32,000 nucleotides of DNA from Cupriavidus necator (GCF_016127575.1 NZ_CP066019.1:2700001-2732000); one strand, 5' to 3'. Shown: positions 1 to 15,225, numbered from the stretch's first letter. Translations and numbers: made by a program. The notes: generated by a model not told the origin, from the letters alone.

Positions 1-543
1 GGCGCCCAAGCCGGCAAGCTTATCGTCGATCCTCTCGACGCGGAGCGCTCGATGCTCGAAGCAGTGCGATATAACAAGCTGGGTGTCGTTCACTACGCGC
101 TGGAAGGGGATATTCCTGCCGAGCTGGAGTTCTCAGGCCGTCAGTCAACGACTCGCATTGCGACCTGGCAACAGTTGCCGGCGGCACCGATCGCAGGACG
201 TTCGCACGCGCAACTCTACTGTCAGCTGACACCCGAGGCAGCCGAAGAAGCGGATCGCCTCGGCCTGGCCGATTCGCTCGACACCCTTATCCGGTCGGAA
301 GTCAGGCAGCGCATTCCCCGCTTCGATAGTCGAGTGCACACTATTGTCAACCAGTGGATTCCGTACAAGCTGCCGATCTTCTACCCTGGCTATTGCCGGA
401 AGGTGGCCGACTTTCTCACCTGGCAGTCTGCCGCGAGACGATCCGTCTACTACTGCGGGGATTACCTGTCCCAAGCGCTCCTGACCGGAGCTTGTGCAAG
501 CGGCGACTCAATCGCAAAAGCAATCCTGGCGCACCACGGTTAG
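1..543 (+). CDS. FAD-dependent oxidoreductase, amine-oxidase fold (3' part only; gene starts upstream of the window)
   Basis: Frame 1 is open from base 1 through the listed Met at 52 to TAG 541-543, so the ORF is truncated by the window edge. The C-terminal ...YYCGDYLSQALLTGACASGDSIAKAIL resembles the C-terminal FAD-contact segment of amine oxidase / protoporphyrinogen-oxidase-like flavoproteins. Recognised from memory only. Confidence 0.55.
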   Translation, partial: GAQAGKLIVDPLDAERSMLEAVRYNKLGVVHYALEGDIPAELEFSGRQSTTRIATWQQLPAAPIAGRSHAQLYCQLTPEAAEEADRLGLADSLDTLIRSEVRQRIPRFDSRVHTIVNQWIPYKLPIFYPGYCRKVADFLTWQSAARRSVYYCGDYLSQALLTGACASGDSIAKAILAHHG

Positions 544-609
544 CTCATGGTTCACCAAGGACTGGCTTGGCAAGTAGGATTCAGGCATATCCGGTGCCGC
601 TGATGAGAA

Positions 610-640
610 ACCCCGGCCACGTTGTGATCCGGGGTATTTG
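610..640 (+). terminator. Candidate intrinsic terminator after the oxidoreductase gene
   Basis: ACCCCGG (610-616) pairs with CCGGGGT (629-635) around a 12-nt loop, followed by ATTTG. It lies 67 nt after the stop codon. Confidence 0.4.
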
Positions 641-752
641 GAAGAACTGCTCACGGCCCCGCGAACCTATTCGTTCGCGGAACGCGCAGAAGACCCGCTA
701 GCGGTCACGAAATACCCTGAAATTTAGCGAGCCAGACTTTCAGCTGCAACGG

Positions 753-2060
753 TCAGGAGATGTTTCCCGCGACTCGCATCTCCTTGTTCTCCTCGCTTAC
801 GAATTCGTCATCACCTTGCAGTACCCGGCGAGCTTGCGTAAGGTCGAGGTGACCTTCCCACGCTGCGATTGCTACCGCACCTACACAGTTTCCGATCAGG
901 TTGAGCGCCACCCGGAAGAAGCCCATCAGCTTGTCCACCGACAGGATAAGCGCCACACCCAAAACGGGAATTGCGGGGATGGCAGTCAACGTCGCTGCGA
1001 GCACGACAGTCGCCGACCCGGGGATGCCATGCGCGCCCTTGGAAGTCAGGAGAGAGACCAGGAGAATCAGGGCGAGGGTTCCACCTTCCAACGGCGTGTT
1101 GGTCGCCTGTGCAATGAAGATGACGGCGCACGTCAGCCAAATCGAGAAACCGTCGAGGTTGAACGAGTATCCCGTCGGAATAACAAGCCCCACCGTAGTC
1201 TCTTTCACACCAAGGTGGCGCAACTTTGCCATCACCAGCGGCATCACGGCATCCGATGAACTCGAGCCCAGGGCGATGAGCAGCTCGCTCTTCAGGTAGC
1301 CGATGAACTTGAACAGGCTAAGACCGGAAAGCCGCATCACCACACCCAGCACAAGGAACAGGAAGATTGCGCATGCGGCATAGTAGGCCAGGACCAGTTG
1401 GCCAAGCTGCTGGATGGTGGCAAAGCCAAACTTTCCGACGGTGAAGGCCATCGCCCCTGCAACGCCGAGCGGCGACAGACGAACAATGAAGCCAATGACA
1501 CGAAAAAGGACTTCGGAAAGGCTGTCCATCAGCTGACCCACCATCTTTCCTTTTTCACCGGCGATTTGAAGCGCGCAGCCGAACAGGACTGCAATCAAAA
1601 GCACCTGCAAAATGTCGCCCTTCGCGAAAGCCGAAAGGAAAGTGGACGGAATGATGTTCAGCAAGAAGCTCTTTACGTCCGAAACGTGTGAGGCATTCTC
1701 GACGAAGGTTTGTATCGACTTCGGATCCAGCGTGGATACATCGATATTCATGCCTACGCCAGGCTTCAAGACGTACGTGACGAAGACCCCAATCAGTAGC
1801 GCAATTGTCGTGACAATTTCAAAGTAGATAATTGTCTTGAGCGCTACACGCCCCGCCGTCTTCAGATCCCCTGCATGCAGGATCCCAGTCACGACGAAAC
1901 AGAAAACAATGGGCGCAAGCATCATCTTGATGAGCTTGATAAATGCTTCCGCCAGTGGCAGCAGTTGCACCCCAAAGGACGGGTACACGAAACCAATAAG
2001 CGCGCCAACTGCAAAGCCCAAGAGGACCTGGATATGTAACTTCTTCAGATACTTAAACAC
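753..2060 (-). CDS. dctA: C4-dicarboxylate / amino acid:cation symporter (DAACS family, DctA-like)
   Basis: Near full-length resemblance to E. coli DctA: ...FIKLIKMMLAPIVFCFVVTGI..., VIPTGYSFNLDG, SSKGAHGIPGS. The ORF is open up to a TTG at 2144. A GTG at 2060 is preceded by GGTGGAGA and gives an N-terminus (M)FKYLKKLHIQVLLG that aligns with the DctA start MKTSLFKSLYFQVL. That start also removes the 22-nt overlap with allA. Confidence 0.9.
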   Translation of the reverse strand: MFKYLKKLHIQVLLGFAVGALIGFVYPSFGVQLLPLAEAFIKLIKMMLAPIVFCFVVTGILHAGDLKTAGRVALKTIIYFEIVTTIALLIGVFVTYVLKPGVGMNIDVSTLDPKSIQTFVENASHVSDVKSFLLNIIPSTFLSAFAKGDILQVLLIAVLFGCALQIAGEKGKMVGQLMDSLSEVLFRVIGFIVRLSPLGVAGAMAFTVGKFGFATIQQLGQLVLAYYAACAIFLFLVLGVVMRLSGLSLFKFIGYLKSELLIALGSSSSDAVMPLVMAKLRHLGVKETTVGLVIPTGYSFNLDGFSIWLTCAVIFIAQATNTPLEGGTLALILLVSLLTSKGAHGIPGSATVVLAATLTAIPAIPVLGVALILSVDKLMGFFRVALNLIGNCVGAVAIAAWEGHLDLTQARRVLQGDDEFVSEENKEMRVAGNIS

Positions 2061-2122
2061 AATTTTTCTCCACCATCCGCCTTCGAAGCCATCGTTGATT
2101 CCGACGGGTTCTTCGCTGTTAC

Positions 2123-2671
2123 TTACTTCTCTGCGGTGCCGCAACCGAGAATTGCATGTTCCATTTCCTGCCTGAACGCGGGAATCACCGGCCGCACCTC
2201 CTCTGGAAGCACAAACTTGTCGCAGTTCGGACCGGCGCCGATCCGGTCAACCACAACGAAGTCACAAGCTTCGGTGGGCAACAGCACGTGATGCCAAACA
2301 CCTGGGGCGTAATTGATGCCTTGCCCTGGTTTGGCGATGAAGGCGCGGACCTCGGCCGCATCCACCGAAACTCCCCGGGGAGCGACCACTACGATAAAAC
2401 TGGTCGGCTTCATGGGAATGAAGGCTTGGCTCGACAATGGGTGACGTTCGAGGAACACCACCTCCAACGGCAATACGTACGGCTTTGCGCGCATGATGCT
2501 GATGCCAGCCTTACCACCAAGAGCCAGAGCATCAACCACGGCGAGGTCATGGTAGCGCTCAACCATGCCTTCGTTGATGTGATGGAAGGCGCCCGGGGAA
2601 GCCTCAATGACCTCGCCGAACGGCGAAAAGGCCGCCTTGGTCAAGGGCTCCAATTTCAGGGTGATACGCAT
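2123..2671 (-). CDS. allA: Ureidoglycolate lyase (AllA family)
   Basis: MRITLKLEPLTKAAFSPFGEVIEA...HHINEGMVERYHDLA...LERHPLSSQAFIPM...GINYAPGVWHH matches the AllA signature over the whole length. AAAGGAGAC Shine-Dalgarno lies before the ATG at 2671. Confidence 0.85.
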   Translation of the reverse strand: MRITLKLEPLTKAAFSPFGEVIEASPGAFHHINEGMVERYHDLAVVDALALGGKAGISIMRAKPYVLPLEVVFLERHPLSSQAFIPMKPTSFIVVVAPRGVSVDAAEVRAFIAKPGQGINYAPGVWHHVLLPTEACDFVVVDRIGAGPNCDKFVLPEEVRPVIPAFRQEMEHAILGCGTAEK

Positions 2672-2712
2672 AGGTCTCCTTTTATGCTTATGACTTTGTC
2701 AGGTTCCGGCCA

Positions 2713-2729
2713 TACTGGTCTGACCAGTA
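2713..2729. promoter_or_regulatory. Operator O1: perfect 17-nt palindrome TACTGGTCTGACCAGTA (putative GntR site)
   Basis: Read directly from the sequence. It lies 3 nt downstream of the -10 of the allA-dctA promoter. The same motif recurs at 5628-5652 and 15078-15094. Confidence 0.6.
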
Positions 2730-2732
2730 ATA

Positions 2733-2761
2733 ACTGTAGACTTGCCAGAAAGCTCGGTCAA
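2733..2761 (-). promoter_or_regulatory. Sigma70-type promoter for allA-dctA (TTGACC-17-TACAGT)
   Basis: On the minus strand, TTGACC is at 2761-2756, followed by a 17-nt spacer and TACAGT at 2738-2733, upstream of the allA ATG (2671). Confidence 0.5.
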
Positions 2762-2791
2762 GTGCTATATGTGATAATTATCAGACCAGTA
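2742..2791 (+). promoter_or_regulatory. Possible gntR promoter (TTGCCA-18-TATATG) plus half-degenerate operator TAATTATcagACCAGTA (2775-2791)
   Basis: TTGCCA is at 2742-2747 and TATATG at 2766-2771. The right arm plus spacer, CAGACCAGTA, is identical to O1; the left arm matches 4 of 7. This would give autoregulation. Confidence 0.3.
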
Positions 2792-2795
2792 TGAA

Positions 2796-3593
2796 GTGTC
2801 ACCTACACAGACTATGAAAGCGACTTCCGCTGCATTGGCACCCAAGGCGCCGCTGACTGCTCCCGCGCCACCAGGGCGTCGGCCACCTATCGCATTGCGC
2901 ACGCCTGTCACGCAGCACGCCTTGGAGCGCATGCAGACATCCATCTACAGCGGCGAATGGGCGGCGGACAGCCAGATCCCCTCACAGCGTGAGTTGGCTG
3001 AGCTGCTCGGCGTAAGCCGCTCTTCCTTGCGCGAGGCAATTTCCTCGCTGGAGGGAATGGGGCTGGTGCGGGTAGAGCCCGGCAGAGGCGTGTTTGTAGC
3101 ATCGCTCGAGCAGCAGGCTGCCGTCGGCAGAAACTCTGAAGTTCATCAGATCGACCATACACCGAGTGAACTTTATGAGGCACGCCTGTTGATGGAAGGT
3201 TGGGCCGCCGCCCTCGCATCCATCCATATCACCGATGACGACATCGCCGCCCTACGAAAACTGCTGGGGGAGATGGAAATCACGGTAAAGGACCACGATG
3301 TCACACGGCTGAACCAGCTGGATTTCGAGTTTCACTCGCTGATAGCTTCTTGCTGCGGCAATCGCCTGATTCGTGCACTACTTGCTCCGATTTTCTCGGA
3401 GGAAGAAATGAGCGCCCCGCGCCTTTCCGACACGGCATTCCTGAGCAGCCGCGTCAAAGAGCACAAGGAAATCGTGGAAGCCTTGGCAACGCGCAACCCT
3501 GGCCTCGCTCAAATGGCCATGCGTAACCATGTCCTGCGCAGCGCAAAGCGTGTCCAGGTAGAGCTGCCTGAGCACGTACATCAGCTGCCTTGA
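2796..3593 (+). CDS. GntR-family transcriptional regulator, FadR/FCD subfamily
   Basis: The N-terminal winged HTH reads IPSQRELAELLGVSRSSLREAISSLEGMGLVRVEPGRGVFV. The C-terminal FCD-type motif is LDFEFHSLIASCCGNRLI. The start may be GTG 2796 or ATG 2814; no clear SD precedes either. Confidence 0.85.
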   Translation: MSPTQTMKATSAALAPKAPLTAPAPPGRRPPIALRTPVTQHALERMQTSIYSGEWAADSQIPSQRELAELLGVSRSSLREAISSLEGMGLVRVEPGRGVFVASLEQQAAVGRNSEVHQIDHTPSELYEARLLMEGWAAALASIHITDDDIAALRKLLGEMEITVKDHDVTRLNQLDFEFHSLIASCCGNRLIRALLAPIFSEEEMSAPRLSDTAFLSSRVKEHKEIVEALATRNPGLAQMAMRNHVLRSAKRVQVELPEHVHQLP

Positions 3594-3609
3594 TGCACCA
3601 CAACTGCAT

Positions 3610-3640
3610 GCCGTTGGCGGGACCGTCGCCTGCCAACGGC
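3610..3640. terminator. Hairpin between the convergent gntR and allE-like genes
   Basis: GCCGTTGGC (3610-3618) pairs with GCCAACGGC (3632-3640) in a 9-bp GC-rich stem. There is no U-tract, as is common in high-GC Burkholderiales. Confidence 0.4.
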
Positions 3641-3651
3641 CGCAGCATGCG

Positions 3652-4425
3652 TCAGAAGGTGAAATCGCGATTCACGTTCTTGTAGAGCAGGTATGTCGCC
3701 TTGGACCAACCGGTGGCATAGAAGAACTGCGGACAGAACGGTGCCATGTAGATGAAGTCCTCCGCCCAGCACTCGTGCCAGTCATTTTGCAGTAGGTACA
3801 TCCCCTGCCCTTCCAGCATATAGAGCCCATGTTCCATGACATGCGTTTCCACCATGGGAAAGTAATTGCCAGGCTCGAAGCTCAGGATGTTGATGGCAAA
3901 GTCGAACGCCGGATTTTCATCGGGCAACAGATGCTGCCAGGTTCGGCCCTTGGTGTGCTTGTTCACCTTCTCGACATTTTGCTCGTGTGAAACCAGGGCT
4001 GCCGGGGCTTCCACGCCTTCGAGGCGTTCATAAGGTTTCTTGATCCATACGACGCGCGCTTCGTCGGCGCCCGGGTTGTACACACGTACGCCAGTTCCCG
4101 CGGGCGCGTATGCGAAGCCCCCTGCCTTGAGCTCGTGTGTCTTGCCCTCCAGTTCGAGCGACACATTGCCTGAAACAACGTAAAAGAAGGCCTGCATACC
4201 GTCGTTTCGCAGGGTCGTCATTCCGCCGCCACCCTGGATCTGCAGCAGCAGCTGGGCAAACTTCGCGCCCAGACCTGGCGTAGCTTGAACGCTGATGGTG
4301 GTCTTCTCAATCCCCGGAATACGGCTTTCCAGAATGCCCTCAGGAGGCATCACCGCATAGTGAGTCGTTACGGCCGCACGATGATGAGCGAACACACCGG
4401 GGGGCTGAATTTGCCGCTTCGTCAT
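3652..4425 (-). CDS. Bicupin, (S)-ureidoglycine aminohydrolase family (AllE/YlbA-like)
   Basis: Colinear with E. coli AllE/YlbA: IPG...ATPGLGAKF...FFYVVSGN...GGFAYAP...ILSFEPG...ETHVMEHGLYMLEGQGMY...DFIYM...YKNVNRD. I chose the ATG at 4425 (AAGGAG 8 nt upstream) over the ORF-track start at 4467. Confidence 0.75.
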   Translation of the reverse strand: MTKRQIQPPGVFAHHRAAVTTHYAVMPPEGILESRIPGIEKTTISVQATPGLGAKFAQLLLQIQGGGGMTTLRNDGMQAFFYVVSGNVSLELEGKTHELKAGGFAYAPAGTGVRVYNPGADEARVVWIKKPYERLEGVEAPAALVSHEQNVEKVNKHTKGRTWQHLLPDENPAFDFAINILSFEPGNYFPMVETHVMEHGLYMLEGQGMYLLQNDWHECWAEDFIYMAPFCPQFFYATGWSKATYLLYKNVNRDFTF

Positions 4426-4453
4426 TTTTTTGAACTCCTTGGGTAGGTGAGGG

Positions 4454-4474
4454 AAGCACCATGGCATGGTGCTT
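4454..4474 (-). other. Intercistronic hairpin between the porin and allE-like genes
   Basis: AAGCACCAT-GGC-ATGGTGCTT forms a 9-bp stem. It starts 5 nt after the porin stop and ends 29 nt before the allE-like ATG. No U-tract follows it. Confidence 0.4.
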
Positions 4475-4478
4475 GAGG

Positions 4479-5606
4479 TTAGAAGCGATGGCGCAATCCG
4501 ACAGAAGCGCCGAATGGGTCGGCGCCAGCGGCCGCTCCGGTGCGGCCGTTGGAAAAGTCATACTTGGCCGCCGCCTGATTGAGAATCTTCGATATCGTTG
4601 TGCGAATCATTGTTCGCTTACTCAGGTTGTAGTTGTAGCCGAGCGTCCACAACTGTGCGCCGGTCTGGCTGCTCGAACCACAGTTGACTCCGTTGCCTCC
4701 CGTGTCCCCTTGGCAACGAACATCATTCGCACGCCCGTACATGGCGTAGATTTCGTGGGCTCCCCAGTCATATTCGGTAACAAAAGCCCACGCATCCCGG
4801 CGCAAGCGGCCGTCACCATTGGAGAACTGGCCATCGCTGACCGAACGGTCATACAGACCGCCGATGAGCCACCGCTCTGTCACCTGGTACTTCACGCCGA
4901 CGCGATGTTTTTGGTCGTGGCCATTGGTCTGTGCCAGGCCGGCCTTGTTCTTGTCGTGTCTGTCCTCGTACGCATAAGCGACGTAGAAGGGACCTCTTGC
5001 ATAGGCAAGCCCGGCACCAATGACGTGGTCGTTGCGGCCGGTCCCGTCGGCGCGGACCTCTCCAAATCCATACTGCGCGCCTACCTCGATCCCATAGAAG
5101 GACGCCGAACGGTAGCGCACCGAGTTTTGCAACCGTGAATCGTGGTCGGTCGAAATGCCGTTCATGCTCGAAACCAACGACTGCAACGCCCCGATGCCCG
5201 TATTTGCGCCTGGCGTAAGATCAAGGGCGTTGCCCAGTGCGCGCACGCTGGTAGTGTTCACACCCAGCGTGAGAGCCCCCACCGGCCGATGGCGCAGTCC
5301 TACGAACGTATCTCGATTAAAGAAGGGCGTGCTGGACGCACCAGAATCAATCGAAAAGTTGCCTTCCAGCTGGAAGAAGGCGTCCAGACCGCCGCCTAAA
5401 TCTTCTGAACCCCGGATACCCCAGTACGACCCTTGCGAACTCAGTCGGGTAGTTCCCGGCTTGTCAGCCGCCGGGCCCGCAGTCGCGCCCTTGGCGCTTA
5501 CATAGTCAATCGCAGCGTCAGCCACGCCATAGAGCGTCACGCTACCCTGCGCTGCGGCGCCGGCCGTGAGTGCCGATAGGACTCCGCCCACCAGTATACG
5601 TTTCAC
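4479..5606 (-). CDS. Outer-membrane general porin (Gram-negative trimeric porin, Burkholderiales type)
   Basis: The signal peptide is KRILVGGVLSALTAGAAAQG, followed by SVTLYGVADAAIDY. The sequence alternates in beta-strand pattern and is rich in G, Y and N, with a C-terminal ...VGLRHRF. The likely start is GTG 5606, preceded by GGGGAGAGAG. The ORF-track extension to 5687 runs through the promoter and operator. Confidence 0.85.
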   Translation of the reverse strand: MKRILVGGVLSALTAGAAAQGSVTLYGVADAAIDYVSAKGATAGPAADKPGTTRLSSQGSYWGIRGSEDLGGGLDAFFQLEGNFSIDSGASSTPFFNRDTFVGLRHRPVGALTLGVNTTSVRALGNALDLTPGANTGIGALQSLVSSMNGISTDHDSRLQNSVRYRSASFYGIEVGAQYGFGEVRADGTGRNDHVIGAGLAYARGPFYVAYAYEDRHDKNKAGLAQTNGHDQKHRVGVKYQVTERWLIGGLYDRSVSDGQFSNGDGRLRRDAWAFVTEYDWGAHEIYAMYGRANDVRCQGDTGGNGVNCGSSSQTGAQLWTLGYNYNLSKRTMIRTTISKILNQAAAKYDFSNGRTGAAAGADPFGASVGLRHRF

Positions 5607-5627
5607 ATCTCTCTCCCCGTTGTTATT

Positions 5628-5652
5628 ATCATACTGGTCATACCAGTATGAT
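5628..5652. promoter_or_regulatory. Operator O2: ATCATACTGGT-CAT-ACCAGTATGAT (11-nt inverted arms)
   Basis: Read directly from the sequence. It sits between the divergent porin (start 5606, minus) and amidase (start 5704, plus) genes and directly abuts the -10 of the porin promoter. An extra half-site ACCAGTATA is at 5590-5598. Confidence 0.6.
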
Positions 5653-5681
5653 ACGATACTCACACGTGTTGGCAGAGTCAA
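5653..5681 (-). promoter_or_regulatory. Sigma70-type promoter for porin-allE (TTGACT-17-TATCGT)
   Basis: On the minus strand, TTGACT is at 5681-5676, followed by a 17-nt spacer and TATCGT at 5658-5653. Confidence 0.45.
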
Positions 5682-5703
5682 GCACACTTTCGAGGAGAGG
5701 CTG

Positions 5704-6687: not shown

Positions 6688-6700
6688 CGACCGGTGCCCA

Positions 6701-6719
6701 CTTCGCCAGGTTGGCGAAG
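6701..6719. terminator. Hairpin between the convergent amidase and allantoicase genes
   Basis: CTTCGCCA-GGT-TGGCGAAG forms an 8-bp stem, followed by CGGGTTTCC on the plus strand. Confidence 0.35.
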
Positions 6720-6740
6720 CGGGTTTCCAAATGGCTACGG

Positions 6741-7796: not shown

Positions 7797-7881
7797 CTGC
7801 CTCCCTAAATTGTCCGCAATGCAGACTGATTGAATCCGCCGCACCCCAGCCAGAGCTGACATGCGGCGATACCTGACGGCG

Positions 7882-8307: not shown

Positions 8308-8370
8308 AATTTCTCCGATTCGCATATAGGCAATGCAGGGGCCTGGCCAAGCCAAGGCCATTGAACAACA

Positions 8371-9573
8371 TCAACCGCGGAAACGCATGGCGGTTCCGAT
8401 GGCACACGCGAACACGATGGATAGGCACGCAGCGATGGCTATCATGGCGTTCGCCAGGCCCATCAGCCCTGCCACATATCCAACGAGCAAGCCACCCACG
8501 GCAGCGCCGGCGCGAAACGTCATGACGTGGAGCGCGACTACCCTACCCTTATGCGTCTCAACGGCTTGCATTTGAGCGAATGCACTTGAGCAGATGTTCA
8601 CAGCGGCCTGACCGAGCGCAAAAATCCCGATGGCGAAATAACCGCCTAGTTCCGAGGACGATAGCGAAAGCATTGCGGTGCCTGAGGCGAGAAAGACAAG
8701 CGAAATCACCTGGACCTTCAGCAGCGTCCGAATGTGACTGACAAGCGAAAGCAAGAGGCCAGCCGCAATAGCAAGGACTCCAAACAATGCATTGATATTG
8801 CCGAGCACCCTTGCATCCTGTCGCAGGATGCTGTCGACGATTGCCGGCAGCATGTCGATAACGGGGCGACCCAGCATCGCATACGCAAGGTAGACCAGGA
8901 AGACCAGGCGCATGGATCGGTCGTCAAGGACTGCGGTGAATGCACCCTTCAGCGTTACGAGGAAGGATTCCCGCCTGGGCGGCCGTACTGGCTTGGTCTC
9001 ACCGTCATTTCCGGAGAGAACTCGCACAAACATGGCATCTGCCAGTGCGGTGACGCCACTCAACGCGAACGCAAAAAACGAGAGATTGTTCGTTATCAAG
9101 TACGCCGCCCCAAGCGGGCCGACAGAACGTGCGATATTCATCGAGACAGAGTTCACCGACACAGCACTGGCGATTTCGGTCTTCTCGACCAGCTTGGTGA
9201 GCAATACCTGGCGGGCCGGCTGCGAAAAGCTTCCGCATATCCCGACGAGTAGCGCACACGCAAGCAACGCGAAAATCGTCAGGTTTCCGGTGACGGCAAG
9301 CGCCGCCAGGACTAAGGACGTCAGACCACAGGTCGCATCAGCGATGCGGACGACTTGCCTGACCTTGCCTCGGTCGACCAGTATCCCCGCGAGCGGGGAT
9401 ACGACGAAGGATGGTGCAAACTGGACGAAGATCAGAATGCCGAGCAGCAGTTCAGAATGAGTTTGCTCCCATGCGTACCATCCCACGACCACCTGCTGAA
9501 CCCATGTCCCAATCTGGGCCGAGGTATGAATCAGGTAATAGGCAGCAACCCGCGGCTGGCGAAGAACTCTCAT
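8371..9573 (-). CDS. MFS transporter (EntS / MFS_3 'transmembrane secretion effector'-like)
   Basis: About 12 predicted hydrophobic helices. The N-terminus reads AYYLIHTSAQIGTWVQQVVVGWYAW...SPLAGILVDRG, typical of that MFS subfamily. Its ATG (9573-9571) overlaps the TGA of the upstream ABC ATPase (an ATGA overlap). Confidence 0.8.
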   Translation of the reverse strand: MRVLRQPRVAAYYLIHTSAQIGTWVQQVVVGWYAWEQTHSELLLGILIFVQFAPSFVVSPLAGILVDRGKVRQVVRIADATCGLTSLVLAALAVTGNLTIFALLACALLVGICGSFSQPARQVLLTKLVEKTEIASAVSVNSVSMNIARSVGPLGAAYLITNNLSFFAFALSGVTALADAMFVRVLSGNDGETKPVRPPRRESFLVTLKGAFTAVLDDRSMRLVFLVYLAYAMLGRPVIDMLPAIVDSILRQDARVLGNINALFGVLAIAAGLLLSLVSHIRTLLKVQVISLVFLASGTAMLSLSSSELGGYFAIGIFALGQAAVNICSSAFAQMQAVETHKGRVVALHVMTFRAGAAVGGLLVGYVAGLMGLANAMIAIAACLSIVFACAIGTAMRFRG

Positions 9574-11624
9574 GCTCGCAAAGTCATGGACTCCACACCC
9601 ATGTCATTGCGAGAATAAGTATCCTGCATCAAAGATGAATCGGCCTCGACCAGCGAGTTCGCGTAATGGCACCGGACAGCACGCCCGTCCCCATACTCGC
9701 TCAACGCCGGCCGTTCATTGCACACGTCCGACCGATACGGGCACCGCGGGGAGAAGCAGCAGCCTTCCGGCCTTTGCATTGGGTTCGCAACGCCCGCCAG
9801 GATTCGATTCGCTTCATCCTGTTCCCGCCGCACCAAGGTCGGCGTACTTGCGAGCAGCGCTTTGGTATAGGGATGGGCCGGATTTCCCAGAACCTGCTCG
9901 GCAGGTCCATATTCGACGACTTCACCCAGATACATCACGGCAATCTCATCTGCCATATGACCCACCACAGCGAGGTCATGGCTGATAAACACCAGCGTCA
10001 GCTGAAACTCCTTCCGAAGTTGCAGCAGAAGGTTCAGGATCTGAGCTTGAACCGAGACATCCAGCGCCGACGTCGGCTCGTCGCAGACAATCAATGCCGG
10101 GTTGGTTGCAAGGGCACGTGCAATTGCAACGCGTTGGCGCTGCCCACCGGAGAGCTGCCCGGGTGAAGCGTGGTGAAGCCGGGTTGGCAGACCGACCTTC
10201 CCGAGCAAGCTGGTCACGTGCGCGTCACGTTGTGCCGCGGGCATGGCCGCAGACAGGTCAAGCGGCCGCCGTACAATCTCGCTCACACTGCGACTCGGAT
10301 TGAGCGATGAGTAGGGATCCTGAAATACGGTCTGCACAAGGGCTGCCCGCTGCGCGGGCTCATACGCTCCAATGGGACGTTCATCGAGCAGCACTTCTCC
10401 TGAAACTGGCTGCTCCAACCCGAGAAGCATCCGAGCAAGCGTGGACTTCCCGCATCCCGACTCACCCACGATGGCCAGTGTCCGGCCCTTCTGAAGACGC
10501 AAGGACACGTCAACCACAGCCTTGAGCGAGAGCCGTGGCTTGAACAGGCCGCCGCGGACCTGGTACGTCATGGAGATGTCCTTTGCTTCCAGCAGTACAT
10601 CTCCCGCCGGCCTCCGCAACATAGCCATAGGTGTCTCGACTTCCTCCGGCTGCGGGGCGCTGGCAAGGTGACATGCACCAGAGTGCTTCTTGTCGTAGGC
10701 ACGAAGCTTCGGCGCTTCGAGACCGCATCTGGCGAATGCGTACTTGCACCGACGCTCGAAGACGCAGCTGGCTGGCTGGGAATAGAAAGACTGGACGGTG
10801 CCCGGTAGTGTAGGAAGCAGAGTGCCGGCCTCATGCTTCCCAAGGTCCGGGATCGACCGTAGCAGGCCCTGCGTATAGGGATGCCGCGATGCGGCGAAGA
10901 GTGTGCTCGTCGGTGCGGCTTCTACGATTTCTCCGGCGTACATGACGGCAACGTTGTCGGCGACTGATGCTACGGCCCCCAAATTGTGGGAGATCAGCAG
11001 CAATCCCATGCCGAGCTCTCGACGCAGGTCATCCAACAAGTCCAGGATCTGCTTTTGGACCGTGACATCCAGGGCCGTAGTGGGCTCGTCGGCGATGAGC
11101 AGCTGCGGGCGATTCATGAGCGCCATGGCAATCATGATGCGCTGGCGTTGCCCACCGGAGAACTCATGCGGGAACGATGTCATACGCTTGGCCGGCGAGG
11201 CAATACCCACCCGCTCCAGCAGCTCAATCGCGCGTCTGCGGGCATGGTCGCCGGCCACCGCCTGGTGGCGCCGCATTGTCTCCGTCAACTGCCTGCCGAT
11301 GCTGTAGACGGGGTTCAAGGCCGTCATTGGCTCCTGGAAGATGTATCCAACCTGAGTCCCTCGCACGGTGCTCGCCAGGTCGCGCTCAGACATGCTGGTC
11401 AGGTCCAGGCCATTTACGCGCAGCGTGTCAGCCGAGCACTGTGCGCGCCGTGGCAGCAATCGTGGAATCGAAAGCGCAGTTAGCGACTTGCCGGAACCTG
11501 ACTCACCGACTACTCCGAGGCACTCTCCCTTGTCGATTTTGAGGCTGACGTTACGGACAGCATGCAATGTGCGCCTGTTCTCCAGCGGCAGCTTGATGCT
11601 GAGATTCTCTACTTCAAGAAGCAT
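9570..11624 (-). CDS. ABC transporter ATP-binding protein, fused double ATPase (DppD-DppF / GsiA-like)
   Basis: It carries two complete ATP-binding cassettes. Walker A motifs are GESGSGKS and GESGCGKS. Signature motifs are FSGGQRQR and LSGGQRQR. Walker B motifs are LLIADEPT and LIVCDEPT. Both halves end in the Cys-rich Opp/Dpp C-terminal segment. The true start is ATG 11624, 5 nt after the permease stop. The 848-aa ORF-track version runs into the permease gene. Confidence 0.9.
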   Translation of the reverse strand: MLLEVENLSIKLPLENRRTLHAVRNVSLKIDKGECLGVVGESGSGKSLTALSIPRLLPRRAQCSADTLRVNGLDLTSMSERDLASTVRGTQVGYIFQEPMTALNPVYSIGRQLTETMRRHQAVAGDHARRRAIELLERVGIASPAKRMTSFPHEFSGGQRQRIMIAMALMNRPQLLIADEPTTALDVTVQKQILDLLDDLRRELGMGLLLISHNLGAVASVADNVAVMYAGEIVEAAPTSTLFAASRHPYTQGLLRSIPDLGKHEAGTLLPTLPGTVQSFYSQPASCVFERRCKYAFARCGLEAPKLRAYDKKHSGACHLASAPQPEEVETPMAMLRRPAGDVLLEAKDISMTYQVRGGLFKPRLSLKAVVDVSLRLQKGRTLAIVGESGCGKSTLARMLLGLEQPVSGEVLLDERPIGAYEPAQRAALVQTVFQDPYSSLNPSRSVSEIVRRPLDLSAAMPAAQRDAHVTSLLGKVGLPTRLHHASPGQLSGGQRQRVAIARALATNPALIVCDEPTSALDVSVQAQILNLLLQLRKEFQLTLVFISHDLAVVGHMADEIAVMYLGEVVEYGPAEQVLGNPAHPYTKALLASTPTLVRREQDEANRILAGVANPMQRPEGCCFSPRCPYRSDVCNERPALSEYGDGRAVRCHYANSLVEADSSLMQDTYSRNDMGVESMTLRA

Positions 11625-11629
11625 GGCGT

Positions 11630-12532
11630 TCAATCCCGAGTCTGTGGCTGGATGACATCGCGCAACCCATCGCCGAGCAGGTTCACGCCTATCACGAGAA
11701 GAAAGAGAGATGCGCCGGGCAGCAAGACAATCCATGGATTGAGGAACATCACCGCCTTGCCTTCCGAGATCATCAACCCCCAGGACGGGATGGGCGAAGG
11801 CACTCCGACGCCAAGGAACGACAGCGACGCTTCTGCCAGGATAGAAACCGCCACTTCCGCAGTGAATACGACCAATAGCGACCCAGCCAGGTTGGGCAGG
11901 ATGTCCCAGACGATGATTTGGCGAGCACTGGCGCCAGCCAATTTCGATGCCTTGACATAGTCCAGTTCTCGAATCCGCTGCGTTGCGCTGCGCGTCACGA
12001 CCAGATAGAGCGTCCAGTGCATCAGCCCGATAACGCAGACGACGGTCGTGAGCGACGGCTGAATGAAATAGATCAGAGTCATCGCCAGGAGCAAGCTCGG
12101 AAGCGCAAGCTTGCACGTAAGGCCGAACATGACAGCGTGGTCAACCAGGCGCCCGAAGTATCCGGCGATCGAACCCAACGTTATTCCGATGACGGCGCCG
12201 ATAGACGCGGCGCAGAAGCCAATGGTGAGCGATACTCGCGCGCCCTCGAGCAGGCGCGCAAGAACGTCTCTACCCAGCTGGTCCGTGCCGAGCGGATGCT
12301 GGAGTGCGCCCCTGGCATCCCAAGCCGGCGGGCGCAGTCGCATCATCAGATCCTGCGCGTATGGGTCTGTCGTCCAAATCAGCGGCCCGAAAAGCGCAAC
12401 CATGATGTAGGCAAGTACCACCCCACCACCAATGCGCACGCTTCGGTTGCGAAGGATTCGTTTTGGCAGACTGTCGCGCCTTTCAGCATTCGATGAGGCG
12501 CTTACTTCCGTAGTCAGAGCAATATCGGTCAT
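11630..12532 (-). CDS. ABC transporter permease (DppC/OppC-like)
   Basis: The N-terminal TM helix is followed by ...DPYAQDLMMRLRPPAW... and an EAA-type loop, ASKLAGASARQIIVWDILPN. ATG 12532 lies 1 nt after the stop of the upstream permease. Confidence 0.9.
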   Translation of the reverse strand: MTDIALTTEVSASSNAERRDSLPKRILRNRSVRIGGGVVLAYIMVALFGPLIWTTDPYAQDLMMRLRPPAWDARGALQHPLGTDQLGRDVLARLLEGARVSLTIGFCAASIGAVIGITLGSIAGYFGRLVDHAVMFGLTCKLALPSLLLAMTLIYFIQPSLTTVVCVIGLMHWTLYLVVTRSATQRIRELDYVKASKLAGASARQIIVWDILPNLAGSLLVVFTAEVAVSILAEASLSFLGVGVPSPIPSWGLMISEGKAVMFLNPWIVLLPGASLFLLVIGVNLLGDGLRDVIQPQTRD

Positions 12533-12533
12533 C

Positions 12534-13451
12534 TCATGCAAGCCTAATTCGTGGGTCAAGCCAGGCGTTGAGGACGTCTGACACAAAAGTCATCAGCACA
12601 AACATCACCGCGAAGACAAGCACCAGCATCTGTAAGGTAGGGATGTCACCGGTAAGCACTGAATTCAGTGCCAACCGGCCCAATCCATTCATGGCAAAGA
12701 CGACCTCGGTAACGACCGATCCTCCCAGCTTGTTCCCCAGTTCGATGGCGAGCACGCTCACCACCGGAAGAATCGCGTTACGCAAGGCGTGGCGACGCAG
12801 AAGGCTCCAGCCGAAGAACCCTTTTGCCCGGGCGGTCCGGATAAAGTCCGCCGAAAGTACTTCCATCAGCCCCGACCTGGTCAGCCGCATGACATTCGGG
12901 ACCGCACCTTTGCCGAGAATCACCGCCGGCATAATGTAGCTCTGCCACGAGTCGTCTCCGGACACCGGAAGCAAGCCGAGGTGAACGGCGAAAAACAGGA
13001 TGAACAACAGTCCTACCCAGAAATTCGGGGCGGCCTGTATGGCGGCTGCGACTGAGAGCGCGGTGCGGTCTATCCAGCTGCCTGGCCGCAGTGCGGCAGC
13101 GACACCAAGTGGCAGGCCGATCAGGATGGTGACCAGCATCCCGCTCAGCGCCAGTCGGATGGTGACCGGTGCATGCTCGAGGATAATTTCCATGACTGGC
13201 TGCTTCATGACATAGCTGACGCCCAGGTCACCTTTTAACAGCCCGCCCACCCATGTCACGTACCGCTCTGAAGCGGGCCTGTCCAACCCGAGGTCTGCGC
13301 GGACTTGCGCGATTACGGCCGGGTCATCGGTATCGCCAACGATAGCCGCGGCCGGGTCGACGGCAAAGTTGAGCAGCGCAAAGGTGACAATCGACGCCGT
13401 CAAGGCGACGGCGATTGCCAACAGGATCTTCTGCGTAACGAATCTAAGCAC
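12534..13451 (-). CDS. ABC transporter permease (DppB/OppB-like)
   Basis: MLRFVTQKILLAIAV... and DFIRTARAKGF...LRRHALRNAILPV are typical DppB family motifs. The start is GTG at 13451. Confidence 0.9.
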   Translation of the reverse strand: MLRFVTQKILLAIAVALTASIVTFALLNFAVDPAAAIVGDTDDPAVIAQVRADLGLDRPASERYVTWVGGLLKGDLGVSYVMKQPVMEIILEHAPVTIRLALSGMLVTILIGLPLGVAAALRPGSWIDRTALSVAAAIQAAPNFWVGLLFILFFAVHLGLLPVSGDDSWQSYIMPAVILGKGAVPNVMRLTRSGLMEVLSADFIRTARAKGFFGWSLLRRHALRNAILPVVSVLAIELGNKLGGSVVTEVVFAMNGLGRLALNSVLTGDIPTLQMLVLVFAVMFVLMTFVSDVLNAWLDPRIRLA

Positions 13452-13472
13452 GATGTCGTTTCCCTAGTTCGT

Positions 13473-15032
13473 TCACTTCTTTGCCTTCCACGTGGCTAGA
13501 TACAGCCGTGGCATGCCGTCAGCAGCCTGCGGAAAATTCAGATCCGGCGCCAGGACGAAGTTCTGGGTGAATTCAAACAGAGGTACCCAGTAGGCTTGGT
13601 CAAGAATGCGACTCACCGCCTCCCGCCCGAGCTCCTTACGTGCTGGGATGTCGGTTGTGGACAGGAACTGTTCGAGACTCAAATACAGTCGCTGGTCGTG
13701 ATGGAAGTCACTGGGCGAGCCCTTGCCGAACAGATTGGGCAAGAGCGCGCCAGCATCCGCGACGCCCAGGGAGCCGTTGTTCTCGAAATATGCTGAGATC
13801 TGGTTTTCATCGCGCGCCTTGAGCACAGCGGGCGATTTGGCGACGCGCAGATTGGCGTTGATTCCGGCCTTTCGCCACATCGCGACGACAGCTTCCAGCG
13901 TTTCCTTTTCACGCGATGCCCACAGATCAAACTGAAGTCCGTTCGGATAACCCGCCTCAGTAAGAAGTTGCTTCGCCTTTGCGATGTTGTAGTTGTACTT
14001 GGTGACGTCCTGGGCGCAGCCGAACTGTATCGGCAAGCAGGGGGTATAGGCAGGAGCCGAACGTCCGCGAATGAGCTGCCTTGTCAGAGCCTCCCGGTCC
14101 ACCGCGTAGTTGAGGGCCTGACGTACCTTCAGCTTGGTAAAAGGATTGTCCTTGCCGGTGCGCCCGGCCGCGTCCAGCACGATGAAGCCGATGCGCATGG
14201 ACGGCGACGCCACAAAGACTGCTTGCTTGGTACTTCCAACCTCATCGGCAATGTCCGTTGGAATGTTGTATGTCCAATGAACGCCGCCGGAAAGAACCTC
14301 CGCTACCTGAGTTGCGTAGTCTGGAATCACCTTGATGCGAATGCGCGGGATTTCTGGCGTGCCTTTCGGGGATTCCTTGCGATAGCCGGCAAACTTTTCC
14401 AGCACGACTTCTCGTCCGGGCAGGAACGAGGTGACTTTATAGGGGCCAGTCCCCACCATTTTTCGCGACTGCGCCTCGACATCCAGGCCGCTGGGCGTCC
14501 CCGCTTTGTCGTACGTTCCGCTCTTGACAACCCGACCTGTCGTTGCCAGAAAATGCAGCGCCAGAGGATTCGCGCCCTTCATTCTGAACACCACGGTACC
14601 AGGCGCTTCCCCCTTCTCTACTTTCGCCAGCCATCGCTTGAACTGATCCCCCTTCTTGGCAGTGCTTTTGGGATTGATGATGGACTGGAATGTATAGATG
14701 ACGTCGTCGGCTGTCACTTTGCTGCCGTCATGGAACTGGATGTCCTCACGCAGGGTGACTTCAAGAACGGTCGGTTCGAGATATCGGTAGCTCTTTGCCA
14801 GCAAGGGCGTCGGCTGCTGCGTCGCCGGGTCGATGTAGAAGAGAGAATCGTCAATCAGGAGACTGAGGATTTCGTTCTCGCGAGAGGTGGAGTTGAAATT
14901 GTCCAATACCAATATTTCTCTCGCGACCGCTGCGACAAGCGTGCCGTCTGCGGGCTTGGCGTCCGCGGCAATCGGTGAGAAACATCCCCATAGGATGGAG
15001 AGGCCTGCCAAGCTGCTGCGAACTCGTTTCAT
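13473..15032 (-). CDS. ABC transporter substrate-binding protein, family 5 (peptide/nickel/opine type)
   Basis: Signal peptide MKRVRSSLAGLSILWGCFSPIAADA. About 520 aa with the family-5 pattern ...YRYLEPTVLEVTLREDIQFHDGSKVTADDV... It is the first gene of the ABC operon. Confidence 0.9.
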   Translation of the reverse strand: MKRVRSSLAGLSILWGCFSPIAADAKPADGTLVAAVAREILVLDNFNSTSRENEILSLLIDDSLFYIDPATQQPTPLLAKSYRYLEPTVLEVTLREDIQFHDGSKVTADDVIYTFQSIINPKSTAKKGDQFKRWLAKVEKGEAPGTVVFRMKGANPLALHFLATTGRVVKSGTYDKAGTPSGLDVEAQSRKMVGTGPYKVTSFLPGREVVLEKFAGYRKESPKGTPEIPRIRIKVIPDYATQVAEVLSGGVHWTYNIPTDIADEVGSTKQAVFVASPSMRIGFIVLDAAGRTGKDNPFTKLKVRQALNYAVDREALTRQLIRGRSAPAYTPCLPIQFGCAQDVTKYNYNIAKAKQLLTEAGYPNGLQFDLWASREKETLEAVVAMWRKAGINANLRVAKSPAVLKARDENQISAYFENNGSLGVADAGALLPNLFGKGSPSDFHHDQRLYLSLEQFLSTTDIPARKELGREAVSRILDQAYWVPLFEFTQNFVLAPDLNFPQAADGMPRLYLATWKAKK

Positions 15033-15077
15033 GCTCTGTAATCCCCCTGAACATACGATTTTTTGCCGTTCTGGTCA

Positions 15078-15094
15078 TACTGGTATGACCAGTG
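15078..15094. promoter_or_regulatory. Operator O3: TACTGGTatgACCAGTg, embedded in the palindrome CTGGTCATAC-TG-GTATGACCAG (15071-15092)
   Basis: Read directly from the sequence. It lies 7 nt downstream of the -10 of the ABC-operon promoter and 46 nt upstream of the SBP start codon. Confidence 0.6.
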
Positions 15095-15101
15095 TCGAGA
15101 C

Positions 15102-15131
15102 ACTATAGTCGGGGGGTTGAGCTACTGTCAA
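15102..15131 (-). promoter_or_regulatory. Near-consensus sigma70 promoter for the ABC/MFS/DUF3830/alc operon (TTGACA-18-TATAGT)
   Basis: On the minus strand, TTGACA is at 15131-15126, followed by an 18-nt spacer and TATAGT at 15107-15102. Confidence 0.55.
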
Positions 15132-15225
15132 AAGAGGGTTTTCCCGCAGTGGCAGCGCCCGATTGCCAACTCGCTGGCGTGTGCCGCCTATACTCCGCAT
15201 GCCACCTTTCATCCGGAGCCAAACC

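Follow-up and report, generated by a model that had tools for sequence, protein, structure and literature searches.

Which compound does a catabolic block take up and degrade when it carries the last enzymes of allantoate breakdown beside a peptide-type importer? The window analysed here, a stretch of 32,000 nucleotides from Cupriavidus necator, raises this question because of an unusual set of enzymes and transporters that recurs in several related bacteria and is known from its genes alone. The original prediction was that the block may import and dismantle a different compound, possibly an amidated or peptide-like ureide.

A mobile block without the early purine enzymes

Profile matches uphold all gene calls of that prediction over positions 753-15093 (Table 1). 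This block is self-contained and spans about 14.4 kb. The window corresponds to about 2,774,566-2,806,565 of C. necator H16 chromosome 2 (AM260480.1). The G+C content of the block is 55-61%, compared with 66-69% in the right-hand flank, and its genomic neighborhood differs between H16, C. oxalaticus, and the related locus L007, demonstrating that the block is mobile and was acquired horizontally. Its distribution is patchy.

With every gene of the block accounted for, we confirmed the absence of allantoinase, an M20-type AllC, uricase, HIU hydrolase, OHCU decarboxylase, and urease. We considered whether the missing genes might lie just left of the window. In H16, the 4.3 kb on that side contain a porin, a TPP enzyme, and an amine oxidase, but neither a ureide gene nor the operator described below; puuE/allB, allC, uricase, and other urate genes are thus found neither within the block nor in this flank. 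The amine oxidase at the left edge of the window, previously counted as a regulon member, belongs to a separate operon.

Table 1. Features of the block and its left edge, with profile scores (bits) and curated cut-offs
Feature	Position	Strand	Evidence or context
Amine oxidase	1-543		Final gene of separate upstream operon; without operator
DctA-family (SDF) secondary transporter	753-2060	-	PF00375 343; NF009587 601, cut-off 570
Ureidoglycolate lyase AllA	2123-2671	-	PF04115 193; NF009932 179, cut-off 160
Operator O1, ACTGGTCTGACCAGT	2714-2728		allA/gntR divergent region
GntR-family repressor with FCD effector domain (FadR subfamily)	2814-3593	+	PF00392, PF07729
Bicupin, (S)-ureidoglycine aminohydrolase family	3652-4425	-	TIGR03214 317, cut-off 200
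Porin_4 outer-membrane porin	4479-5606	-	PF13609 168
Operator O2, ACTGGTCATACCAGT	5633-5647		Common to overlapping divergent porin and amiF promoters
AmiF-type formamidase	5704-6687	+	NF009803 526, cut-off 406
Allantoicase, distinct clade	6741-7793	-	PF03561, two repeats; TIGR02961 355, cut-off 278
DUF3830 protein	7882-8307	-	PF12903 49, cut-off 26
MFS_3 (EntS-like) transporter	8371-9573	-	PF05977, PF07690
Fused double ATPase, DppD-DppF type, oligo_HPY domains	9570-11624	-	NF008453 619; two ABC domains
ABC permease, DppC/OppC type	11630-12532	-
ABC permease, DppB/OppB type	12534-13451	-
Family-5 periplasmic SBP (SBP_bac_5)	13473-15032	-	First gene of long operon
Operator O3, ACTGGTATGACCAGT	15079-15093		Downstream of SBP-operon promoter

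One operator system

The perfect 15-bp palindrome ACTGGTNNNACCAGT occurs three times, once in each of three promoter regions, where it immediately follows a promoter-like -10 box. Allowing up to three mismatches, we counted six matches compared with 0.9 expected, a number that none of 100 shuffles reached. The allA promoter-like boxes (-35 at 2761, -10 ending at 2733) immediately precede O1, with a degenerate second site nearby at 2776-2790. The SBP-operon promoter, TTGACA-18-TATAGT at 15131-15102 (11 of 12 matches), precedes O3, which is overlapped by a degenerate copy at 15070-15084.

These three sites place the allantoicase, the bicupin, and AllA under one operator system, as proposed. The allA gene forms one operon with dctA, its second gene; the porin gene heads the porin-bicupin operon; and the allantoicase gene is the last of the long operon that begins with the SBP. 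Within these operons, the gaps between genes range from a 4-bp overlap, as between the MFS_3 start and the ATPase stop, to 88 bp.

The operator motif is found at equivalent positions in five other genera. The O1 position is kept in L007, L107, L015, and L099, and O3 is kept, ahead of the SBP gene, in L007, L107, L014, L013, and L108; in L007, which lacks amiF, a degenerate O2 copy precedes the porin start by 29 bp. The core TGGTN3ACCA, the only pattern scanned for in L098, is absent there. The presumed binder of the palindromes is the GntR/FCD protein, whose orthologs (48-95% identity) are present in every related locus.

Conservation of enzymes and importer

We compared nine distinct loci from Cupriavidus, Achromobacter/Bordetella, Rubrivivax, Verticiella, and two metagenome contigs. 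A core of a distinct allantoicase clade, a UGlyAH-type bicupin, AllA, and the GntR/FCD repressor is present in all nine, and no allantoinase or urate gene lies in or beside any of them. Seven of the loci also have the family-5 ABC importer, whose linkage to the enzyme genes holds in four genera. The original prediction that importer and enzymes share a common control is borne out by their co-conservation and common operator. DUF3830, DctA, the porin (five of nine loci), MFS_3 (also in L007, L107, and L014), and a family-3 SBP are accessory; the first four had been listed as parts of the regulon, and their gene calls stand, but not as constant members.

The SBP itself matches no curated family. 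All of its NCBIfam matches fall far under their cut-offs (best GsiB, 133 bits versus 594), and its best PDB match is YliB/GsiB with 118 bits. Orthologs with at least 58% identity always adjoin alc, the bicupin gene, and allA, whereas relatives with at most 47% identity never do.

The ExHxxxH...Q metal motif of the bicupin is intact in the printed alignment with Escherichia coli YlbA, and the hit table lists a match to Arabidopsis thaliana UGlyAH (4E2Q, 100.6 bits). The allantoicase shares 54-92% identity with members of its clade, at most 50% with all others, and 43-48% with canonical allantoicases. In the clade, three residues with at least 97% invariance among 95 other allantoicases have been exchanged: Arg-79 for Ser, Thr, Ala, or Val; Lys-266 for Thr, Leu, or Val; and Met-228 for Trp. 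In both repeats, such changes lie next to the GWET and HFKGN motifs. The clade also has an N-terminal extension and an indel, and it retains 73 of 92 canonical invariants.

The formamidase and the DUF3830 protein

The formamidase aligns over its full length with the Bacillus cereus enzyme (5G3O, 345 bits). It was found in only two of the nine loci, those of C. necator and C. oxalaticus, and is absent from L007, L013, L014, L015, L108, L113, and L114. The enzyme is therefore not part of the ancestral pathway but a lineage-specific insertion beside the porin operator, co-regulated through O2. The predicted amidase thus does sit behind the common operator, although it lies outside the core.

DUF3830 proteins form a small family of 254 representatives. 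The model of the block's copy (pLDDT 86) predicts a cyclophilin-like fold, with matches to 3KOP and to the Pictet-Spenglerases KslB and McbB. The family recurs in ureide and hydantoinase clusters, among them urate clusters of haloarchaea and hydantoinase clusters of bacteria, and this recurrence provides a lead to its function.

Proposed role and alternatives

The explanation that we prefer, at about an even chance of being right, is that the block, under one GntR/FCD repressor, serves to scavenge a linear ureide from outside the cell, with allantoate or a near analog as the most likely substrate. Because allantoinase and urate genes are missing in and beside all nine loci, the ureide must already be open when it enters the cell. 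From these data we infer what is imported and in which direction, what acts as effector, and the following order of reactions. The porin would admit the compound to the periplasm, and the family-5 SBP with its ABC transporter would import it, the allantoate backbone being dipeptide-like; the DctA paralog, a candidate transporter of allantoate or some related carboxylate, could be a second route. The allantoicase would then remove urea to give ureidoglycolate, which AllA would cleave to glyoxylate and a second urea, while the bicupin would turn any ureidoglycine or similar aminal into ureidoglycolate. Enzymes encoded elsewhere would process urea and glyoxylate. Without inducer, the repressor would occupy the palindrome just downstream of each -10 box, and a pathway carboxylate (allantoate, ureidoglycolate, or glyoxylate) would release it. 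The formamidase gene may have joined later, as a passenger inserted next to the porin operator.

This role is supported by the enzymes' family scores, which exceed curated cut-offs, by the bicupin's metal motif, and by the promoter-proximal palindromes with their equivalent placement in other genera. Four points count against it. The allantoicase route yields no ureidoglycine, yet the bicupin accompanies it in every locus and is absent from canonical alc-allA clusters. The allantoicase forms a separate clade in which canonical invariants are replaced. No family-5 SBP is known to bind allantoate. Finally, a family-3 SBP is all that accompanies the enzyme core in L114, where the 3.5 kb of available upstream sequence contain no SBP5 system.

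The obligatory pairing of allantoicase and bicupin and the replaced allantoicase residues keep alive the idea of a different ureide, a possible but less probable explanation. In a sharpened form, the substrate would be a candidate such as an N-substituted ureidoglycine, X-NH-CH(COO-)-NH-CO-NH2 (N-acyl or N-formyl), a product of oxidized purines, or an opine-like aminal. Urea would be removed by the divergent allantoicase and the amine displaced by the bicupin, leaving a carbinolamide for AllA to cleave; the formamidase would handle the released small amide in C. necator. The clade-specific changes by the GWET and HFKGN motifs, the N-terminal extension, and the indel would fit such a substrate, as would the replacement of the NCS1 allantoin permease by peptide/opine-type importers (family-5 and family-3 SBPs) and the recurrence of DUF3830 beside enzymes acting on ureido compounds. 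However, the scheme is hypothetical and names no specific compound as substrate. All three enzymes score as ordinary family members, most canonical allantoicase invariants are retained, the formamidase is too restricted in distribution to belong to the ancestral pathway, and the Paracoccus pairing of AllC with the bicupin suits plain allantoate. The peptide-like ureide first suggested was not borne out, plain allantoate being the most economical substrate.

It is improbable that the block serves ordinary terminal purine catabolism, in which the allantoicase and AllA would finish intracellular urate-derived allantoate, the earlier enzymes being encoded elsewhere in H16, and in which the ABC system, porin, MFS protein, and DctA would be unrelated, co-located peptide or dicarboxylate transporters. 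The three enzymes are annotated family members, the 120 best allantoicase homologs include no canonical Cupriavidus enzyme, so that the block copies could be the sole ones, and physiological work by Kaltwasser in the 1960s reportedly found urate degradation by strain H16. Nevertheless, the transporter genes lie in the enzymes' own closely spaced operons behind the same operator, the SBP5-enzyme linkage persists across genera while more distant SBPs are never linked, and the block is patchy, low in G+C, and variably placed. Its regulator is only 25% identical to that of the canonical cluster and shares no operator with it.

A block centered on the formamidase, with the porin and ABC system importing short amides or urea in the manner of the Methylophilus fmd cluster, is very unlikely: the enzyme is a true AmiF type behind O2, and formamidase activity is reported for the species (Friedrich and Mitrenga 1981, as cited in PMC10781810), but amiF is missing from seven of nine loci, the operator belongs to the porin promoter where amiF is absent, and the ABC system is of the Dpp rather than the FmdDEF or Urt type.

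Comparison with known systems

The block differs from an ordinary purine cluster. Canonical Burkholderia clusters (GntR, NCS1 permease, racemase, puuE, uraD, alc, allA, puuD, and hiuH) and those of Pseudomonas share with it the sequence of allantoicase and ureidoglycolate lyase, giving glyoxylate and two urea. A GntR/FCD-type regulator is common to the block and the Burkholderia cluster, but the operator is absent from the latter (L112). Compared with that cluster, the block lacks allantoinase, racemase, uricase, HIU hydrolase, OHCU decarboxylase, and the NCS1 permease and adds the bicupin, Dpp-type ABC importer, porin, MFS protein, DUF3830, and DctA. The alc-allA-bicupin grouping that the original prediction attributed to pseudomonads was not borne out in P. 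aeruginosa, where alc-allA is followed by puuD, without a bicupin or an ABC importer.

The AllC/AllE route of E. coli and plants uses a bicupin of the same family, although the window's copy scores 211 bits against the E. coli-type equivalog (cut-off 445) and has an allantoicase as partner instead of an M20 AllC. Rhizobial UGlyAH2, named "bifunctional allantoicase/(S)-ureidoglycine aminohydrolase" in NCBIfam NF040771, is likewise a bicupin of an allantoate pathway without AllC. The window's bicupin reaches 209 bits there (cut-off 350), is about 40% identical to Rhizobium copies and, unlike UGlyAH2, coexists with a true allantoicase. The formamidase of the block resembles the Helicobacter pylori and B. 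cereus AmiF enzymes in full-length alignment and equivalog score, but is inserted in a ureide regulon.

The gntR/dctA-alc-allA module of Caballeronia sp. SBC1 (pSBC1_1) has the same palindromic operator, a GntR/FCD regulator with 36% identity, and a DctA paralog with 58% identity, whose gene heads dctA-alc-allA. It also lacks the upstream purine enzymes. The module shows that allantoicase-route genes supplied by a transporter alone can be under a regulator of this type. In contrast to the block, its allantoicase is of the canonical type, with Arg-79, Lys-266, and Met-228 kept, and a bicupin, ABC importer, porin, MFS protein, and DUF3830 are all absent.

A plasmid cluster of Paracoccus pantotrophus contains a Dpp-type ABC system, an AllC-like M20 hydrolase, a bicupin adjoining it, two DUF3830 genes, and an MFS fragment. 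Identity to the block is 72% for the bicupin and 40-42% for DUF3830, and in both a peptide-type importer precedes the ureide enzymes. The Paracoccus cluster differs in having the M20 amidohydrolase instead of an allantoicase, an RpiR-type regulator, and no AllA nearby; its ABC system is not orthologous (SBP 25% identity, separate ATPases). By analogy, this association of the other known allantoate route with the same kind of importer would support allantoate as the substrate.

The importer of the window matches the GsiA/YejF architecture (family-5 SBP, two permeases, and fused double ATPase), although its SBP falls short of every curated family cut-off. Yeast Dal5 transports both allantoate and dipeptides and, as an unrelated MFS protein, offers a functional analogy for allantoate as a peptide mimic.

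Gene content of the ureide block

Profile searches recovered every gene named in the original prediction (table below), with the allantoicase (Alc), AllA, the bicupin, the formamidase and DctA all exceeding curated NCBIfam cut-offs. When all block genes were searched, we found no allantoinase, M20 hydrolase (the AllC type), uricase, HIU hydrolase, OHCU decarboxylase or urease, which upholds the absences noted from the sequence. The G+C content of the block is 55-61%, compared with 66-69% in the right-hand flank, and the remainder of the window holds genes unrelated to it. The formamidase protein is identical in C. necator H16 chromosome 2 (AM260480.1), placing the counterpart of the window there at ~2,774,566-2,806,565.

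Features of the ureide block and other features of the window
Feature	Coordinates	Strand	Evidence
DctA	753-2060	-	profile search, above curated NCBIfam cut-off
AllA	2123-2671	-	PF04115 192.9 bits vs 23; NF009932 178.6 bits vs 160; full-length
GntR/FCD regulator	2814-3593	+	PF00392 (wHTH) and PF07729 (FCD)
UGlyAH-family bicupin	3652-4425	-	TIGR03214 317.2 bits vs 200
Porin_4	4479-5606	-	profile search
AmiF-type formamidase	5704-6687	+	NF009803 526 bits vs equivalog cut-off 406
Allantoicase	6741-7793	-	PF03561, two stretches, 300.6 bits; TIGR02961 355.5 bits vs 277.9
DUF3830	7882-8307	-	PF12903 49.3 bits vs 26
MFS_3	8371-9573	-	profile search
Fused double ATPase	9570-11624	-	profile search
Two Dpp-type permeases	11630-13451	-	profile search
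Family-5 SBP	13473-15032	-	profile search; under all curated family cut-offs
ArsR/SmtB-like regulator, DUF6630 protein	15163-16453	+	
PLD/cardiolipin-synthase-like gene	18661-20331		
AA_permease, Amidohydro_3 enzyme	20691-24034	+	
YafQ toxin/RelB-DinJ antitoxin	24146-24839	-	
TonB-dependent receptor	24899-27133	+	

The original prediction would have been undone by puuE/allB, allC and uricase genes lying just left of the window under the same operator. In H16, that DNA instead carries a single plus-strand operon encoding a porin, a TPP enzyme of generic type and an amine oxidase (its C terminus is window 1-543). Because these 4.3 kb contain no ureide gene and no operator copy, the missing purine genes are ruled out at that position, and the amine oxidase, which had been counted in the regulon, belongs to a separate operon. 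The same porin-TPP enzyme (NF006052 subfamily)-FAD amine oxidase operon (L001 597-4840, left of the window, plus window 1-543) also adjoins the block in C. oxalaticus, with a TctC gene between, and may be a unit for amino-acid oxidation and 2-oxo-acid decarboxylation with its own porin.

On the right, the ArsR/SmtB-like regulator, which has a long C-terminal extension, and the DUF6630 protein sit directly at the G+C boundary of the block and adjoin it in all H16-type loci. Farther on, the amino-acid permease and the 558-aa Amidohydro_3 enzyme make up a small uptake-plus-hydrolase unit without an operator copy. The toxin-antitoxin pair lies just upstream of the TonB-dependent receptor gene in a local G+C dip (~0.62 vs 0.66-0.69).

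A palindromic operator at three promoter regions

Common operator control of the block had been proposed, and the sites are consistent with it. The 15-bp palindrome ACTGGTNNNACCAGT has three perfect copies in the window, at 2714, 5633, and 15079, all within the three promoter regions. Allowing up to 3 mismatches, there were six matches against 0.9 expected, a count reached in none of 100 shuffles. Each palindrome is directly downstream of a promoter-like -10 box; these boxes belong to the SBP operon, the overlapping divergent porin/amiF promoters, and allA. A site just past the -10 box is the classical arrangement for a repressor of the FadR subfamily of GntR proteins, and binding by the block's regulator is predicted on this basis. 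The regulator has the wHTH and FCD domains of such systems, and the palindromic TGGT-N3-ACCA at promoters is kept across genera: it is present at the equivalent promoters in all genera with orthologous loci and also upstream of the family-3 SBP genes in the Rubrivivax and Verticiella loci.

Intergenic spacing within the block ranges from a 4-bp overlap to 88 bp, suggesting five transcription units (SBP through alc; amiF; porin-bicupin; gntR; allA-dctA). An operator-like sequence at window 19572-19586, ACTGGTCGTTCCAGT, has 2 mismatches, falls within the PLD/cardiolipin-synthase-like gene and is probably a chance match.

The conserved core in related loci

We counted gene presence over nine distinct loci, using tblastn tables and called genes. 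These were the window, its counterparts in C. oxalaticus (L107) and a Cupriavidus-like genome (L007), and loci from Achromobacter aloeverae (L013), Bordetella genomosp. 10 (L108), a Rubrivivax MAG (L014), Verticiella sediminum (L015) and two metagenome contigs (L113 and L114); the metagenome scan recovered three loci, two of them informative. The neighborhoods of the block differ between the H16 window, C. oxalaticus and L007, showing that the block is mobile.

The allantoicase, bicupin, AllA and GntR genes were each found in all nine loci. The family-5 ABC system was present in seven, one of the negative loci ending at alc and the other offering only 3.5 kb upstream. The porin and the family-3 (polar amino-acid type) SBP each occurred in five loci, MFS_3 and DUF3830 in four, DctA in three and the formamidase in two. 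On contig L114, a class-III aminotransferase (1230-2603) flanks the alc-bicupin-gntR-allA core on one side, and Rut-pathway-like genes for a luciferase-like monooxygenase, an isochorismatase and an alpha/beta hydrolase (7102-10189) lie on the other, providing a physical link to pyrimidine catabolism.

This distribution excludes the formamidase as the key to the pathway, since amiF does not belong to a conserved core defined as genes found in most orthologous loci. What stands of the predicted AmiF-type amidase in the regulon is its identity and its shared operator site. The protein aligns along its entire length with the B. cereus formamidase 5G3O (345 bits), and the regions of the Glu-Lys-Cys motif are conserved (FPEY, YRKL, and ICHDG). 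In L007 the porin gene directly follows alc, and an operator lies 29 bp upstream of the porin start. From this gene order, we therefore conclude that amiF in C. necator and C. oxalaticus was inserted beside an operator that already existed.

A distinct allantoicase clade paired with a ureidoglycine aminohydrolase-type bicupin

The window allantoicase has two tandem repeats and scores above the TIGR02961 equivalog cut-off. It forms a clade with ~20 database clusters that are 54-92% identical to it, whereas all other allantoicases are at most 50% identical; no second Cupriavidus allantoicase appeared among its best 120 homologues. Comparison with 95 other allantoicases gave 92 positions with an invariance of at least 93%, of which 73 are kept and 19 are changed in the clade. 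The replacements include R79 to S/T/A/V, K266 to T/L/V, M228 to W, several F to Y and, in an alignment of eight sequences, D230 to K. The clade enzymes also have an N-terminal extension and an indel, and the changed residues adjoin the conserved GWET and HFKGN motifs in both repeats. These changes would fit a shift in substrate or product but do not prove one.

Ureidoglycolate is the direct product of allantoicase, so a ureidoglycine aminohydrolase should be superfluous beside this enzyme. The pairing of the two is nevertheless strict across the nine loci, in conflict with the textbook either/or of the two allantoate routes, and hints at a new substrate or an unrecognized intermediate. An AllC-type M20 gene, as a partner for the bicupin, was found neither in the block nor in any of the nine loci.

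The bicupin falls below the E. coli-type (211 vs 445) and UGlyAH2 (209 vs 350) models. It retains an ExHxxxH...Q metal motif in the C-terminal cupin, and its ETHVMEHG and CPQ stretches align with the metal-motif residues of 1RC6 (YlbA), 1SEF, and 1SQ4. It also matches the A. thaliana UGlyAH 4E2Q, from whose structure we take E-x-H-x3-H ... Q of the C-terminal cupin to be the Mn ligands. On a Paracoccus pantotrophus plasmid, a 72% identical bicupin adjoins an AllC-like M20 hydrolase, which suggests genuine UGlyAH chemistry for the bicupin clade. The alc-allA-bicupin grouping put forward for pseudomonads did not hold in P. aeruginosa: there, alc-allA is followed by puuD, and a bicupin homologue (1SQ4) exists but was not found beside alc.

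The binding protein and other transporters

SBP orthologues of at least 58% identity always adjoin alc, bicupin and allA, and the next relatives, at most 47% identical, never do. A genome-collection scan with the SBP alignment, in which the back-translated patterns were too general to serve as more than a negative control, placed none of the relatives among the matches listed (at most 41% identity) beside alc, allA or bicupin. Relatives of ~45% identity in Pelobacter and Chelativorans have unrelated enzymes nearby and give no clue to the ligand.

The original prediction had also singled out an SBP orthologous to a characterized ureide binder as a finding that would overturn it. The best curated match was GsiB, at 132.6 bits against a cut-off of 594, and the best PDB match was 1UQW (GsiB/YliB), at 117.7 bits. 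The protein falls outside the characterized family-5 SBPs (DppA, OppA, GsiB, NikA, CntA, AccA, and others); since it lies under all curated cut-offs with GsiB/YliB nearest (118 bits), it is not orthologous to a characterized ureide-binding protein. We know of no characterized allantoate importer in bacteria that depends on a binding protein. Our literature search gave no mention of an allantoate ABC transporter with an allantoicase, of DUF3830, of UGlyAH2 or of the likely H16_B242x-245x locus tags.

In five loci, a family-3 SBP (lysine/arginine/ornithine- or cystine-like) accompanies the alc-bicupin-allA core (L013 18737-19519, L014 7018-7797, L015 8000-8788, L108 13262-14044, and L114 2656-3534), in most of them as an orphan with no permease of its own. 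Where these loci have this protein, Cupriavidus has DctA. The DctA paralogue could plausibly transport allantoate or a related carboxylate.

DUF3830 in ureide and hydantoin gene clusters

The DUF3830 family is small, with 19 word-index matches and 254 representatives among 1.84 billion proteins. A sequence search against the PDB returned nothing significant, and matches came from the fold search alone: the model is confident (pLDDT 86), has a TM-score of 0.80-0.81 to 3KOP and also matches the cyclophilin-like Pictet-Spenglerases KslB and McbB. Such enzymes condense amines with aldehydes or 2-oxo acids.

Outside loci of the window type, the immediate neighbor of DUF3830 was a cyclic amidohydrolase or an M20 carbamoylase-type hydrolase in nine of 11 contexts, two of these within complete urate clusters (Haloferax volcanii pHV3 and Halalkalicoccus); the other two contexts were unrelated. 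We take these neighbors as a lead to a possible role in ureide or hydantoin catabolism. The survey provides a testable functional context, in bacteria and archaea, for this small family, whose known structure had lacked an explanation.

The haloarchaeal genes, in H. volcanii pHV3 (L103, 6652-8414), Halalkalicoccus jeotgali (L110) and Halorubrum lacusprofundi (L104), lie in or beside urate and ureide clusters. Their neighbors include an NCS2 permease, an M20 "Zn-dependent hydrolase" and an amidohydrolase, as well as XDH genes, uraD, pucL and uraH. The genes listed include neither a bicupin nor AllA, which leaves a step that DUF3830 could supply. The bacterial genes, in Paraburkholderia (L105), Agrobacterium vitis (L109), Aureimonas (L111), Azospirillum (L101) and Rhizobium johnstonii pRL10 (L102), directly follow a gene of the dihydropyrimidinase, hydantoinase or dihydroorotase family; a hydantoin-racemase-family gene is frequently present as well, and an M20 carbamoylase is frequently absent.

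A mobile unit for a proposed external ureide

Together, these data indicate that the block is mobile and, under the control of a repressor, serves a linear ureide that comes from outside the cell. What is both unusual and conserved in it is the importer, along with the pairing of allantoicase and bicupin; this part of the proposed non-ordinary ureide pathway stands, and the formamidase and amine oxidase drop out of it. For the substrate itself, we give allantoate about an even chance, and the Paracoccus cluster speaks for allantoate-type compounds as substrates of peptide-type importers. A distinct ureide other than allantoate is a possible but doubtful alternative, with which the clade residue changes would be compatible.

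We propose only tentatively that the clade allantoicase, the UGlyAH-type bicupin and AllA make up an undescribed ureide pathway fed by peptide- or amino-acid-type SBP importers, acting on a non-allantoate substrate or on allantoate via a bicupin-requiring intermediate. DUF3830 may help in such a pathway; it would then be a missing enzyme of ureide/hydantoin catabolism acting on carbinolamide or aminal intermediates, which fits both the Pictet-Spenglerase fold and the haloarchaeal urate and bacterial hydantoinase clusters. Ordinary terminal purine catabolism with unrelated transporters is improbable. Of the genes that accompany alc-allA in a canonical purine cluster, puuE/allB and those for OHCU decarboxylase, HIU hydrolase, uricase/PuuD and an NCS1/NCS2 permease were found neither in the block nor in the 4.3 kb to its left nor in the related loci.

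In legumes, soils, and excreta, allantoate and allantoin rank among the main carriers of nitrogen. The mobile ureide unit provides a concrete candidate allantoate importer, and its clean regulation offers a handle for work in an organism amenable to genetics. For the engineering of C. necator, it marks a repressor-operator pair, with repressor binding predicted, and a native formamidase gene.

Comparison with known systems

The canonical purine cluster of B. multivorans (L112) has the order GntR, NCS1 permease, racemase, puuE, uraD, alc, allA, puuD, hiuH. Allantoinase, OHCU decarboxylase, HIU hydrolase, uricase/PuuD and permease are thus all present there and all missing from the block, whereas the bicupin and the ABC importer of the block are absent from both the B. 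multivorans and the P. aeruginosa clusters. The B. multivorans regulator is 25% identical to that of the window, and the window operator is absent.

A gntR|dctA-alc-allA module on Caballeronia sp. SBC1 pSBC1_1 (L099 6657-10494) shares with the block the palindrome and a 58% identical DctA but, unlike the block, has a canonical-type allantoicase and no bicupin; its operator, CACTGGTCCGACCAGTC, is at 7516, and its flanks are unrelated. By analogy, this module suggests that the DctA paralogue may be dedicated to substrates of the allantoate route, and the common palindrome and DctA indicate that the block's type of regulator governs transporter-fed allantoicase modules more widely. The Paracoccus pantotrophus cluster has two DUF3830 genes and another Dpp-type ABC importer, non-orthologous to that of the window, and there the other known allantoate route, the AllC-like one, stands behind the same kind of importer as in the block.
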